From contig JAURKC010000006.1 in the NCBI GenBank assembly GCA_030831945.1, positions 65,364 through 129,363 of the forward strand: a stretch of 64,000 bases of DNA, read 5' to 3'. The translations under genes and the position numbers were made by a program. Source of the DNA: Ferruginibacter sp. (GTDB lineage Bacteria > Bacteroidota > Bacteroidia > Chitinophagales > Chitinophagaceae). Shown here piece by piece: positions 12,438-15,539 of this stretch (position 1 is its first letter; every line of letters begins with the position of its first letter). The notes below the pieces were generated by a model, which made no database searches, was not told the DNA's origin, and saw only the letters and a program-made list of their open reading frames with translations.

Positions 12438-15284
12438 TTAGAAAATTCGGATGGGTCTAGCATTCATCTGAAAATAATTTTTTGTGTTTAAGTAGGTTGT
12501 TCCAGCATCAAAATTGTAGCACCATGCGTCTCTAGTAGCACCGTCATTTGAAGACCAATACATACCACTCATACTAAGTAATGTTTTTTGCAAGTAAAGA
12601 AGATATAATTCATATTTACTTGGCAGGTACCAATCTCCATAATTACCATCTTGAAAAGTAAGGCATACATAAGCCGCATACGATGTATAATCAGATTTAA
12701 AGATGATATCTGAAGATTTAATATTTTGTATAATTCTTTCGGTATTATTCCTGCCAGCTCCAATTCCATCTCGAAGTGGATAAACACTTGAATTAACTTG
12801 TGTACCATCAGCTCCCCAATATTTACCTGTCAAATTAGCTGTTGCTGCTATTAACCCATGTGCTCCACCATCCCAAGTATAAAAAACAATTCCACCACCA
12901 TATGATTCGCCAATTATATGTGTACTTCCTGCAGAAGGGGTCGGAATATTTAAAGTAGTCCCTGATAATGTTGCAACGCCTGTTCCATTAGTGGTTAAGT
13001 TAAGAGGCGCTTGATAATCTGTGCCAGCAACAGCTGCAGTTAATGAACTTGTTCCTGTTCCTTTTATAATTCCTGTTAATGTGGTTGCACCAGTACCCCC
13101 ATTTGCAACAGGCAATGTTCCAGTTACGCTGGTGGTAAGATTTGTTGATGATGAACTAGCCGCTGTTCCGTAACCTTGGCCAATATTCCAATAACAATTG
13201 GTGCCATCATAATAAAAATTCAAAATGTCTTTTGCATTGGCAGCAGTAGATAAAGCGATGCTGGTGGTTGATGTTGATCCCAATACTTTATTTGCAGTGG
13301 TGGGTAATGTGATGGTTCTGCTTCCTGTTGCATCTTGAGATACCACCAATGTTCCATAAGCACCTGCTATGGGGGTACTAGTAAAACTCAACGTTCTATT
13401 TCCTCCTAAGGTTACACTTGCATTTAAACCAAGAGCAGGATTCCAATTGATTGTTGAACCATCCGTTAATGCTTGTGGTGTAGAAGCATAAATAGGAGTA
13501 TTAATACTGGTAGCAGTGATTGTACCTGTGTTAACGCTTGTTGCACTTACTGCTCCTGTATTGATTATTTCCGTTGTAACTGTTCCAGTAAAAGTGGGTG
13601 AAGCTAAAGGTGCAGCACCTGTCACATCTGCAACAGGAATAGATGCATTTGCAGTCAAGACAGAATTGCCTGCTCCTTTCACATAACCCGTTAAATTAGC
13701 TGCACCCGTTCCGCCGTTTGCAACTGCTAATATTCCTGTAACAGCCGATGCTAAATTAGTGTTGCCTGAATTTGATGCGCTTGCTGCTGTCCCATATCCT
13801 TGACCAATATTCCAATAGCAATGGGTACCATCGAAATAAAAATTTAAAATGTCTTTTGAGTTAGCAGCAGTTGATAAAGTAACCGTACTCGTTGAGGTAG
13901 ATCCTAACACTTTATTTGTAACACTAGCAATGGTTGGTAGATTAATCGTTCTACTTCCTGTTCCATCCTGCGTTAAAACAATTGTTCCGTAAGTACCCAC
14001 TGGAGGAGCAGCAGTAAAACTTAAGGTGCTATTTTGCGATAAAGTAATCGCTGCATTTAATCCTTGCGCAGGATCCCAATTAATAGTAGTTCCTGTATAG
14101 CTTAATGTTTTAGGCACTGATGCATACGTAGATGCAGTTATACTAGTTGAACTTAAGGAGCCTGTATTAATAACACCTGTAGTAACTATTCCTGTAAAAA
14201 TAGGTGAAGCTATATTCGCTTTTAATACAAGTGCAGCAGTATTAGATGAGATGCTTGCAGTGTTAGAAGCTATATTAGTTTTTAGAATCGCAATATCAGT
14301 TGTGTTCGATGTAATACTGCCCGTGTTACTTGTTACATTTGTTGTTAGTGTAGCTAAATCATTAGCACTTGCTTTTATATTTATAGCAGCAGTGTTGGCA
14401 GTAATACTTGCTGTATTAGATGCAATTTTCGAAGTTAAAATGACTTCAGCAGCGGTGGCTCTTATTGTTTCTGCAGTAATTGAAGCTGTATTAGCAGCAA
14501 CCACTGTAGCAAGATTGTTTACATCTACTGCATTCGATTTTAAATTAATCCGATTAGATAAATTTGTGGTATCAATAGTAACTGCACTATTTCCGCGTGA
14601 AAAATTATAACTAGCCAATTGCGTTGGTGTAATATAACCGTTTGCACTATCCGAAATATTTAATTTTGTACCCAATGCAACTTGCGTTAATTCACTAATG
14701 GGTTTTGCTGCATCACTGGTATTATTCACTAAATCTAAACCTACCTTCGATTTATTCAGCGTTCCAATCATATCACTTGTTATGGCACCATTCGCAATAG
14801 AAGTGGCATTACCCACACTCGTTACTACACCTGTTAAATTTGCATTCGTCTTAACAGTCGCTGCACTACCTGCTCCAAATGCATAAGGTACACTCACCAA
14901 CTGAACTGTACCAATGTCGATATAATTATTATTAGATGCTGGATCTAATTCTACTTGCAAAAATTTATTACCTACTACCCAGTTTACGCCACCCAATGTT
15001 CCAGTACTACTGCTAGCACCTGCACTGCCAATCTGCACCGAAAACAAACCACCTAGATTGGTAGTAATTGCTCGAATTTCTGAATAAACTACCGCTCCCG
15101 ATGGTAATAAATCATGTATCGACAAACGAAGTTTCATTGTCTGATTTGGCAAAGGATTACCTACATTATTTCTTGCTACCCCTTGGTAGTTCAATAAATT
15201 TGGCGCCTGCGCAAAAGCAGAAAAGCTCATTAGGAGCGTTATGATTATAAGGGCGTTGGTTTTTAGAATGGATTTTAGATGCAT
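12438..15284 (-). CDS. Large secreted fibre-like protein: Bacteroidota QAP..YQ N-domain, coiled-coil stalk, duplicated phage-tail-fibre-like domain, C-terminal DUF1566/Lcl-type domain
   Basis: Signal peptide then QAPNLLNYQGVARN...QLVSVPYA. Phage-fibre-like motifs KVGLDLVNNTSDAAKPIS, (K/A)A(N/P)(I/L)ASP.FTG and G.L.VANGGTG. N/T-rich heptads. C-terminal IGESYGGGIVFY...DWYLPSKYEL...YWSS...RPIRIF. Confidence 0.78.
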   Translation of the reverse strand: MHLKSILKTNALIIITLLMSFSAFAQAPNLLNYQGVARNNVGNPLPNQTMKLRLSIHDLLPSGAVVYSEIRAITTNLGGLFSVQIGSAGASSSTGTLGGVNWVVGNKFLQVELDPASNNNYIDIGTVQLVSVPYAFGAGSAATVKTNANLTGVVTSVGNATSIANGAITSDMIGTLNKSKVGLDLVNNTSDAAKPISELTQVALGTKLNISDSANGYITPTQLASYNFSRGNSAVTIDTTNLSNRINLKSNAVDVNNLATVVAANTASITAETIRATAAEVILTSKIASNTASITANTAAINIKASANDLATLTTNVTSNTGSITSNTTDIAILKTNIASNTASISSNTAALVLKANIASPIFTGIVTTGVINTGSLSSTSITASTYASVPKTLSYTGTTINWDPAQGLNAAITLSQNSTLSFTAAPPVGTYGTIVLTQDGTGSRTINLPTIASVTNKVLGSTSTSTVTLSTAANSKDILNFYFDGTHCYWNIGQGYGTAASASNSGNTNLASAVTGILAVANGGTGAANLTGYVKGAGNSVLTANASIPVADVTGAAPLASPTFTGTVTTEIINTGAVSATSVNTGTITATSINTPIYASTPQALTDGSTINWNPALGLNASVTLGGNRTLSFTSTPIAGAYGTLVVSQDATGSRTITLPTTANKVLGSTSTTSIALSTAANAKDILNFYYDGTNCYWNIGQGYGTAASSSSTNLTTSVTGTLPVANGGTGATTLTGIIKGTGTSSLTAAVAGTDYQAPLNLTTNGTGVATLSGTTLNIPTPSAGSTHIIGESYGGGIVFYTWDGGAHGLIAATANLTGKYWGADGTQVNSSVYPLRDGIGAGRNNTERIIQNIKSSDIIFKSDYTSYAAYVCLTFQDGNYGDWYLPSKYELYLLYLQKTLLSMSGMYWSSNDGATRDAWCYNFDAGTTYLNTKNYFQMNARPIRIF

Positions 15285-15291
15285 GGTTTAA

Positions 15292-15539
15292 AGGGATATT
15301 TGGTTTGTTAGGTCTTTTAAATTCGGGTTTAGAGGAGCTTTATAATTGTTGGTTCTTTTAAATTCGGGTTTAGGGGAGTAGTAATTTTATTGGTTCTTTT
15401 AAACTCGGGTTTAGTCTTGAGTATTATTATTGTTGGTATTTTTTAACTCGGGTTTAGTTGAGTATAATTATTATTTGCTCTTTTTAATTCGAGTTTAGAA
15501 GGGCGTTATCATAATTTGCTCTTATTAATTCGGGTTTAG
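15292..15539 (-). repeat. Tandem array of six ~41-bp units (about 26-bp conserved part plus about 15-bp more variable part)
   Basis: Minus-strand units begin at 15539, 15498, 15457, 15414, 15373 and 15332 (spacing 41, 41, 43, 41, 41). Consensus CTAAACCCGARTTWAAAAGA(A/G)CMAA(C/T). Confidence 0.92.

Follow-up and report, generated by a model that had tools for sequence, protein, structure and literature searches.

A tandem array of 41-nt repeats lies directly upstream of the start codon of a gene for a fibre-like secreted protein in Ferruginibacter sp., within a 64,000-nt window of contig C19 (positions 65364–129363) of a 2.85-Mb assembly, here called G000. Positions given without a contig or locus name are those of this window, and the minus strand is the coding strand for the array, for the small gene upstream of it and for the fibre gene. 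The reading preferred here, held tentatively and at somewhat less than even confidence, is that the array is an amplified native leader, that is, a transcribed, structure-free intercistronic spacer whose length could grade expression of the fibre gene. It draws on the anatomy of the array, the dispersal and strand bias of related arrays, the lack of structure in the sense strand, an origin at the leader position, copy-number polymorphism and local sequence constraint.

Anatomy of the array

The spacer between the small gene and the fibre gene comprises the following elements, in the order of the minus-strand reading:

15554–15592, minus strand: tier 1, heptamer tract GGTGAAT/GGTCAAT, 5.6 copies (Tandem Repeats Finder, TRF; period 7, 90% matches)
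15540–15553, minus strand: junction TTTAAT followed by tier 2, the octamer CTAAACTT (15540–15547)
15292–15539, minus strand: tier 3, six units of 41, 41, 43, 41, 41 and 41 nt (TRF and core matching)
15499–15539, minus strand: unit U1
15458–15498, minus strand: unit U2
15415–15457, minus strand: unit U3
15374–15414, minus strand: unit U4
15333–15373, minus strand: unit U5
15292–15332, minus strand: unit U6
15285–15291, minus strand: terminal word TTAAACC, abutting the fibre ATG at 15284

Each unit opens with CTAAAC, and the unit starts in the minus-strand reading (15539, 15498, 15457, 15414, 15373 and 15332) are spaced by 41, 41, 43, 41 and 41 nt, which bears out the six-unit array of the original prediction, made from the sequence alone. 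TRF reports a period-41 array at 15305–15540 (5.7 copies, 76–79% matches) and also a higher-order period of 84, and a 20-nt core occurs five times in the window at up to three mismatches, against 0.02 occurrences expected. The heptamer tract, which had been missed together with the octamer and the dispersal of the repeats beyond the fibre cluster, reads GGTGAAT GGTGAAT GGTCAAT GGTGAAT GGTGAAT AGTG and begins 1 nt (one A) past the stop codon of the small gene (15594–15596). A contig of metagenome X2, independent of the assembly, matches 15082–15661 with no mismatches; the array is therefore not an assembly artefact. No open reading frame (ORF) of at least 50 aa crosses 15285–15593, in agreement with the predicted non-coding nature of the array. 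Adjacent units are the most alike, as had also been predicted, albeit modestly so: mean similarity is 0.771 between neighbours versus 0.729 between non-neighbours, and 20 of the 720 possible unit orders do equally well or better.

A seventh unit had been proposed in register with the fibre start codon. Its first 7 nt are in place, as TTAAACC begins 41 nt after the start of U6 and abuts the ATG, but the likeness claimed for the following 34 nt did not hold up against shuffled sequences (ungapped profile, p = 0.09; gapped alignment with U6, p = 0.11; gapped alignment with the consensus, p = 0.25). At least 15 fibre paralogs and orthologs share solely CTAAACC directly 5′ of the ATG, and this recurring word represents a terminal octamer rather than a shortened 41-mer. 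Within the signal-peptide codons of the fibre gene there is also a 12-nt direct duplication (CATCTAAAATCC / ATTCTAAAAACC; 15257–15279) with CTAAAA words that resemble the repeat core; the likeness of this region to a unit is not significant.

A dispersed family with a biased orientation

A degenerate core pattern gives 36 matches in the genome versus none for its reversed control. At up to four mismatches, the matches form about 11 arrays on contigs C4, C11, C15 (two), C17, C18, C19, C22 (two), C26 and C33. The recurrence before fibre genes, with varying copy number, for which the original prediction had proposed a check is found here and in related genomes, but its view of the array as a feature of the fibre cluster was too narrow, since the family is dispersed and also stands at unrelated genes.

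The arrays share one architecture, in which heptamers are followed by a junction, octamers, 41-nt units and a terminal CTAAAC word. The heptamers are GGTGAAT-like, or GATAATG-like in one subclade, and the junction (G)AATAGnGTTTAAy-CTAAACyT is common to the other loci. One to eight CTAAACyy octamers occur per array, with up to 8 in tandem in locus L058. From 192 units (174 distinct) of this genome and related loci, the family consensus is CTAAACyCGAATTwAAAAGaACmAAyAA..TAA.aCTC.., in which positions 0–17 (CTAAACyCGAATTwAAAA) hardly vary and the tail is semi-conserved. Unit spacings (n = 151) are mostly 41 nt (102 cases), followed by 49 nt (22 cases; 41 nt plus one octamer), 43 nt (six) and 51 nt (five). 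In CRISPR arrays, conserved 23–47 nt repeats alternate with unique spacers that are about as long, and cas genes usually accompany them. A CRISPR array was rejected here because the variable part of the units is about 15–23 nt long and itself similar between units, and because the arrays abut start codons.

Nearly all of the 41 tabulated array entries (some loci overlap) end 6–60 nt 5′ of an ORF on the same strand, and this orientation rule is followed by 9 of the 11 locus groups (binomial p = 0.03). The downstream genes are fibre paralogs, a membrane-anchored AraC paralog, rmlB, rmlA, pdxH and genes for a secreted TIM-barrel isomerase, an O-antigen-ligase-like membrane/TPR protein, a TlpA-like protein and a PIN protein. 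In most fibre paralogs behind arrays the word that abuts the ATG is CTAAACC, as against TTAAACC at the present locus, and the ATG of the TIM-barrel isomerase gene lies within the last unit. The array ends showed neither terminal inverted repeats nor target duplications.

Heptamer tracts also occur without 41-nt units at about 10 loci genome-wide, and a second tract in the window, (GGTGAAT/GGTCAAT)x4 at 27107–27134 on the minus strand, has no such units beside it. A separate interspersed family is represented by a GC-rich hairpin repeat, CAGGACGGAGTCCTGCGCCTG, that resembles repetitive extragenic palindromic (REP) sequences and lies beside arrays at about C22:5950–5975 of G000 and in L049, L055 and L068.

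Taxonomic range and origin at the leader position

Relatives of the fibre protein place the organism in an uncultured freshwater lineage of Chitinophagaceae. Arrays with the core are present in about seven species of metagenome-assembled genomes of that lineage (CAMCMP, CAMBTV, JBIIVV, JBIKOV, CANCRO, CANIMM and CANFIN). None was found in the other genomes of a Chitinophagaceae sample (150 other genera, each represented by one genome, and one more same-genus species), and 1 of 24 other same-genus genomes sampled carries them. This narrow range indicates a young repeat family confined to a subclade. A phage link was rejected, as viral contigs yielded a single isolated core match.

In same-genus relatives that lack arrays, the small gene is followed by a 40–55 nt, A-rich and G-poor spacer with CTAAAAC or CTAAAC words and then by the fibre ATG (for example, ...cactaaaaactaaaactaaataacacATG). 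Given these words in array-less spacers, the array looks like an amplified native leader that now measures about 310 nt. The G000 genome itself also has array-less fibre paralogs, at C17:1286, C29:121479 and C11:3742; those on C17 and C29 have the small gene upstream, non-repetitive spacers of 95–170 nt and no adjoining AraC gene. In L083, from a same-genus relative, other short repeats, (CAGTTGGCAATTT)x2 and (AACCTTGAA)x3–4, lie some 150 nt 5′ of the fibre ATG in the same intercistronic position, and this spacer seems to be generally repeat-prone. At fibre homologs of other lineages (L015–L034), no upstream arrays were found, and the repeats there are coding, apart from non-coding 8-mer tracts near fibre homologs of Crocinitomicaceae (L021 432–493 and L023 7253–7340; (ACATTAGC)n and (CACATTAG)n). 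For the pdxH array, an empty-site comparison found G000 without a recognisable pdxH region.

Composition and structure of the sense strand

The genome has no Shine-Dalgarno (SD) signal, and positions −20 to −1 of its genes are about 41% A and 9% G. Such SD-less, A-rich and G-poor upstream regions are typical of Bacteroidota (PMC3155529). The units have a similar bias, with 46% A, 23.5% C, 8.2% G and 22% T (C:G about 2.9), and at A-consensus positions A-to-G changes are rarer than either transversion. The sense RNA of the array folds at −35.3 kcal/mol over 326 nt (z = −1.2), which is not significant, and a structured sense RNA was rejected as an explanation. The antisense RNA, which is the non-coding orientation, reaches −87 kcal/mol (z = −5.95) through inter-unit G-U pairing. 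Over 31 arrays, the mean fold is −0.048 kcal/mol/nt in sense, −0.216 in antisense and −0.177 in random genome windows, and the sense strand has the weaker fold in all 31. An Rfam scan of 14800–16200, at E-values up to 10, returned chance matches only (E above 3).

Unstructured RNA of this kind might also recruit Rho. According to this improbable alternative, the arrays would be Rho-loading attenuators or terminators, similar to Rho utilisation (rut) sites, that end transcripts of the upstream gene or limit read-through into the fibre gene, with a stand-alone NusG paralog as a candidate antiterminator. The composition is that of a rut region (at least 70–80 nt of untranslated, C-rich, G-poor, unstructured RNA), the lack of sense structure extends to all arrays, and most arrays start less than 200 nt after a same-strand gene, including the C26 array, whose next gene is convergent. 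The genome encodes a UpxY-like NusG paralog, and rmlA, rmlB, the O-antigen-ligase-like gene and the surface fibres resemble operon classes that need specialised NusG paralogs in other bacteria. On the other hand, rut sites need no conserved 18-nt core, and arrays stand in divergent intergenic regions (the AraC gene on C15; pdxH in L050) without an upstream co-directional transcript. NusG paralogs are moreover widespread in Bacteroidota that lack such arrays, and the paralog is not specific evidence. It is 168 aa long and lies between aminotransferase and ABC-transporter genes (C1:3870–4145 in G000; 1288–1794 in L073), adjoining no array.

Operon context

The genes and signals around the array are the following:

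16286–17323, minus strand: gene for a membrane-anchored AraC-family regulator, a candidate trans factor (Pfam HTH_18/HTH_AraC, residues 276–343)
16212–16228, minus strand: intrinsic-terminator-like hairpin and T-run 3′ of the AraC gene (AGCCCCGACATGGGGCT TTTTTATTTT)
15594–16139, minus strand: upstream cistron, 181-aa secreted protein with a type IX secretion system (T9SS) C-terminal sorting domain (Pfam Por_Secre_tail, E = 8e-9)
12438–15284, minus strand: downstream cistron, an ORF for a 948-aa fibre-like secreted protein (MHLKS...AQAPNLLNYQGVARN), with a weak Lcl_C match at the C-terminus, or tip

The two genes that follow the fibre gene encode Pfam Laminin_G_3 (LamG) domains. The hairpin at 16212–16228 probably forms the upstream limit of an operon that comprises the small gene and the fibre gene. 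Between these two genes, no terminator-like site was found on the minus strand, no TAnnTTTG box occurs in the spacer or, on either strand, in the units, and a sigma-70 consensus scan did no better than shuffles. Two metatranscriptome contigs of relatives touch the locus, one over 15108–15403 and one over 15561–15917 joined to a unit. RNA depth is very low, and co-transcription across the array is therefore suggested mainly by its anatomy. Of the three functions offered in the original prediction, a repeated element of a co-transcript, copied from the initiation region, is the best supported: it accords with the lack of a terminator or TAnnTTTG box in the spacer, with the A-rich CTAAAAC spacers of array-less relatives and with the partial metatranscriptome coverage.

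The N-terminal domain of the fibre protein has 13 matches in the genome, of which six follow arrays. The small gene with the T9SS sorting domain also precedes fibre genes in array-less same-genus relatives. AraC paralogs adjoin the array-bearing fibre clusters (C19, C15, C18 and C11) and not the array-less fibre genes at C17:1286 and C29:121479, and an AraC match was found at just 1 of 28 loci of the array-less same-genus relatives.

It is very improbable that the units are tandem promoters, with an alternative-sigma promoter of the extracytoplasmic function (ECF) type, GAAC-N16-yCTAA, at each unit junction and initiation multiplied by unit number. A length of 41 nt is about that of one promoter, and G18-A-A-C21 followed, after 16 nt, by (T/C)CTAA resembles the sigma-E-type consensus. 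The supposed −35 element is, however, poorly conserved, on which ground the ECF-like reading was rejected: 'AAC' is present in 2 of the 6 units here, and positions 18–21 and 40 belong to the less conserved ones. In addition, the putative −10 element would lie upstream of the block with the highest conservation, and the units lack the primary-sigma box TAnnTTTG on both strands.

Copy-number variation and constraint

The number of units at the fibre locus is polymorphic in lake populations:

15349–15389, minus strand: 41-nt segment (3′ part of U4 and 5′ part of U5) that is missing from the allele in lake metagenomes X3 and X4

The contig of the deletion allele joins 15348 to 15390 with no mismatches in 206 nt and thereby forms a U4/U5 hybrid unit, while the six-unit allele was found in X5, X1 and X2. 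Heptamer copies at this locus number 5.6 here, about 6 in L009 and 11 in L011. Unit numbers also differ in the rmlB-rmlA spacer, which is about 95 nt long in this genome and holds 1.5 units here, six antisense and four sense units in CAMBTV, and 12 antisense and 11 sense units in CAMCMP. In CAMBTV (L062 1491–2405), a four-helix-bundle gene of the 23S rRNA intervening-sequence type, with its own TAnnTTTG boxes, lies between the antisense and sense arrays; in CAMCMP (L051 353–1766), the four-helix-bundle gene was placed by similar flanking sequence. The original prediction suggested that copy number may tune fibre expression. This would require copy-number variation, which exists in the form of the 41-nt indel allele and of unit and heptamer counts that differ between species.

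Compared with its CAMCMP ortholog (L009), the array is 96.8% identical, unit by unit, which is higher than the third codon positions of the flanking genes (81–87%; Fisher p = 7e-8) and the neighbouring intergenic region (91%; p = 0.02). The TIM-barrel array is conserved to much the same degree in this pair of genomes. In the rmlB, C26 and O-antigen-ligase-like arrays of the same pair, the first and last units are kept and the interior units have been replaced. Constraint is therefore locus-specific, and the 18-nt core is kept at all loci.

Such turnover is what a neutral or selfish minisatellite would show, and this reading is the main rival to the preferred one, though on balance unlikely. 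It holds that the repeats expand by slippage and are kept where they are harmless. Only the G-poor, structure-free orientation would be tolerated in transcribed 5′ regions, so that the strand bias would arise without a positive function, and the core would be conserved for amplification and dispersal, not for the host. The replaced interiors at these three arrays, the huge between-species differences in unit number at one locus, the mixed contexts of the arrays (leader, promoter-upstream, convergent 3′ and antisense), the solitary heptamer tracts at about 10 other loci and the restriction of the family to a young subclade all fit. Yet the fibre and TIM-barrel arrays are far more conserved than near-neutral sites, and within units conservation is far higher in the core than in the tail, even though a unit duplicates as a whole. 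Nor was a cognate mobilising enzyme found: the only candidate is a single Y1_Tnp match below threshold (17.5 bits versus a cut-off of 23), and a REP-associated (RAYT-type) transposase was rejected on this basis. The lack of terminal inverted repeats and target duplications likewise speaks against a selfish element.

A proposed leader whose length could grade expression

Under the preferred reading, the A-rich, G-poor spacer that natively separates the small gene from the fibre gene would have been amplified into a slippage-prone family, with the tiers running from (GGTGAAT)n through (CTAAACyy)n to the 41-nt units, and related sequence would later have arisen at other gene-proximal intergenic sites. 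The array would be transcribed as an intercistronic leader of about 310 nt in an operon of the small gene, the fibre gene and the two LamG genes. Freedom from structure in the sense RNA is the property that SD-less Bacteroidota mRNAs need around start codons, and the leader may form an open ribosome-loading or standby region that ends in CTAAACC-ATG, or may at least be compatible with one. Slippage or unequal crossing-over would add or remove whole units and so change the length of untranslated, C-rich RNA between the cistrons. This could in turn grade expression of the fibre gene relative to the upstream gene, through lost translational coupling and/or Rho-dependent polarity.

Several observations weigh against this reading. 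The RNA support consists of a few low-depth, direction-less contigs from relatives, for which DNA carry-over is possible. RNA contigs of the rmlB locus and of paralog C22 cover coding sequence and reach 18 nt into the last unit at very low depth but leave the arrays uncovered; at this depth, no contig extends over the rmlB array. The orientation rule has exceptions, namely C26/L057, where a Gfo/Idh gene precedes the array and the next gene is convergent, and the antisense arrays 3′ of rmlB in two relatives. At four locus groups (the AraC gene on C15, rmlB, pdxH and the TlpA-like gene), an exact TAnnTTTG −7 box intervenes between array and ATG, which places these arrays upstream of a promoter and not in a leader. 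The rapid interior turnover at other arrays is as in neutral variable-number tandem repeats (VNTRs). Finally, a near-invariant 18-nt core and 97% unit-by-unit identity exceed what a merely unstructured spacer needs, and this conservation hints at sequence-specific recognition. At the TlpA-like gene in L068, only 6 nt separate the end of the exact −7 box TAATTTTG from the ATG, which suggests that this mRNA is leaderless or nearly so.

Recognition could take the form of a dedicated trans factor, either an RNA-binding protein or the AraC paralogs, that reads the core as its word and co-ordinates a lineage-specific surface regulon through arrays of variable length. We regard this as rather unlikely. 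If it were true, the regulon would comprise seven fibre operons, their regulators, rmlA and rmlB, and the O-antigen-ligase-like gene, with the dose-response of each gene set heritably by its number of units; this would be a repeat-number-encoded regulon in an SD-less bacterium.

A related and decidedly unlikely version makes the arrays DNA-binding sites of a regulator, most plausibly the membrane-anchored AraC proteins, with the 18–19 bp asymmetric core as the site of a monomer and with repeat number setting occupancy. The core hardly varies, is asymmetric and has roughly the length of an AraC/MarA-type site, and the arrays with −7 boxes, including that of an AraC paralog's own gene, stand just upstream of them. 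The adjacency of AraC genes to array-bearing fibre clusters, with its rarity at array-less loci, points the same way, though it is explicable by common descent of the paralogous clusters, and many arrays lie far from any AraC gene. The conserved core, the arrays upstream of −7 boxes and the AraC adjacency together leave room for a sequence-specific reader, but variable geometry and a position inside the putative operon argue against classical operators. Fibre arrays end 7 nt from the ATG, so that there is no room for a promoter box, and elsewhere the last core stands at differing distances from the −7 box (about 51, 60, 65 and 118 nt). The original prediction had offered phased operators as one option. 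This is disfavoured, as about a quarter of the 151 spacings depart from 41 nt and the array probably lies inside a transcription unit; spacings of 49, 43 and 51 nt break the helical phasing, and with −7 box distances of 51–118 nt they led to the rejection of a phased operator or iteron array.

Comparison with known repeat systems

No description of such arrays in Bacteroidota was found in the literature. The arrays belong to the dispersed VNTRs of gene-proximal non-coding DNA, among which they are set apart by three tiers, a structure-free sense strand, an orientation bias and an origin from a native leader. As in contingency-type VNTRs, non-coding repeats precede a start codon and vary in copy number. 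The closest functional analogue is the tract of 7-bp repeats at hmw1A and hmw2A of nontypeable Haemophilus influenzae, which likewise consists of non-coding tandem repeats ahead of the start of a gene for a very large surface protein. A heptamer tier and strain-variable copy number are common to both, and a graded rather than on/off effect is to be expected here as well. The two differ in that the hmw tracts have a single 7-bp tier at two loci, versus three tiers (7, 8 and 41 nt) at about 11 loci, including unrelated genes, and share no sequence similarity with the arrays. For HMW, measurements exist of how repeat number affects expression (PMC2424069; PMC8262952), whereas here such an effect is proposed.

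In structure, the closest analogue is the pneumococcal BOX element (boxA-(boxB)n-boxC), which is similarly modular, lineage-specific, dispersed in intergenic regions near genes and variable in an internal module of about 45 nt (PMC3049150). BOX elements are often co-transcribed with genes, form stable RNA structures and resemble miniature inverted-repeat transposable elements (MITEs) with terminal modules (PMC3049150). The arrays match BOX elements and MITEs in their dispersed modular loci; by contrast, they are almost structure-free in sense, lack terminal inverted repeats and target-site duplications, and have a strong orientation bias to the downstream gene. They also resemble the SD-less leaders of Bacteroidota (PMC3155529) in being A-rich, G-poor and directly abutting the start codon, and array-less relatives have ordinary short leaders of this kind. 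Ordinary leaders are tens of nucleotides long and non-repetitive, whereas the array measures about 310 nt and has a conserved 18-nt core.

The solitary (GGTGAAT)n tracts recall a further system. Short tandemly repeated repetitive (STRR) heptamers of heterocystous cyanobacteria are dispersed, intergenic tandem heptanucleotides, but they belong to another phylum and have another sequence, and the heptamers here are often coupled to 8-mer and 41-mer tiers. In ToxR-type control of a Vibrio promoter, a membrane-anchored factor binds tandem heptad repeats. The likeness lies in a gene for a membrane-tethered regulator beside tandem repeats upstream of a likely target, where repeat number could set occupancy; the differences are that the regulator here is of the AraC family and not OmpR-like, that its binding is proposed and that the array probably lies inside a transcription unit.

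Biological significance

Bacteroidota initiate translation without Shine-Dalgarno pairing, and the rules for a good leader are still being worked out. The arrays offer a natural series of leaders, with 1 to 12 copies of one structure-free module, before surface-protein operons and polysaccharide genes, and their copy-number variation in wild lakes opens the way to a direct test of how leader length and composition affect expression between cistrons. If the repeats are neutral, they would nonetheless be a clear example of a native leader giving rise to a young repeat family. They also allow a test of whether repeat-number variation may diversify the cell surface of uncultured freshwater Chitinophagaceae, for example, against phages or grazers.

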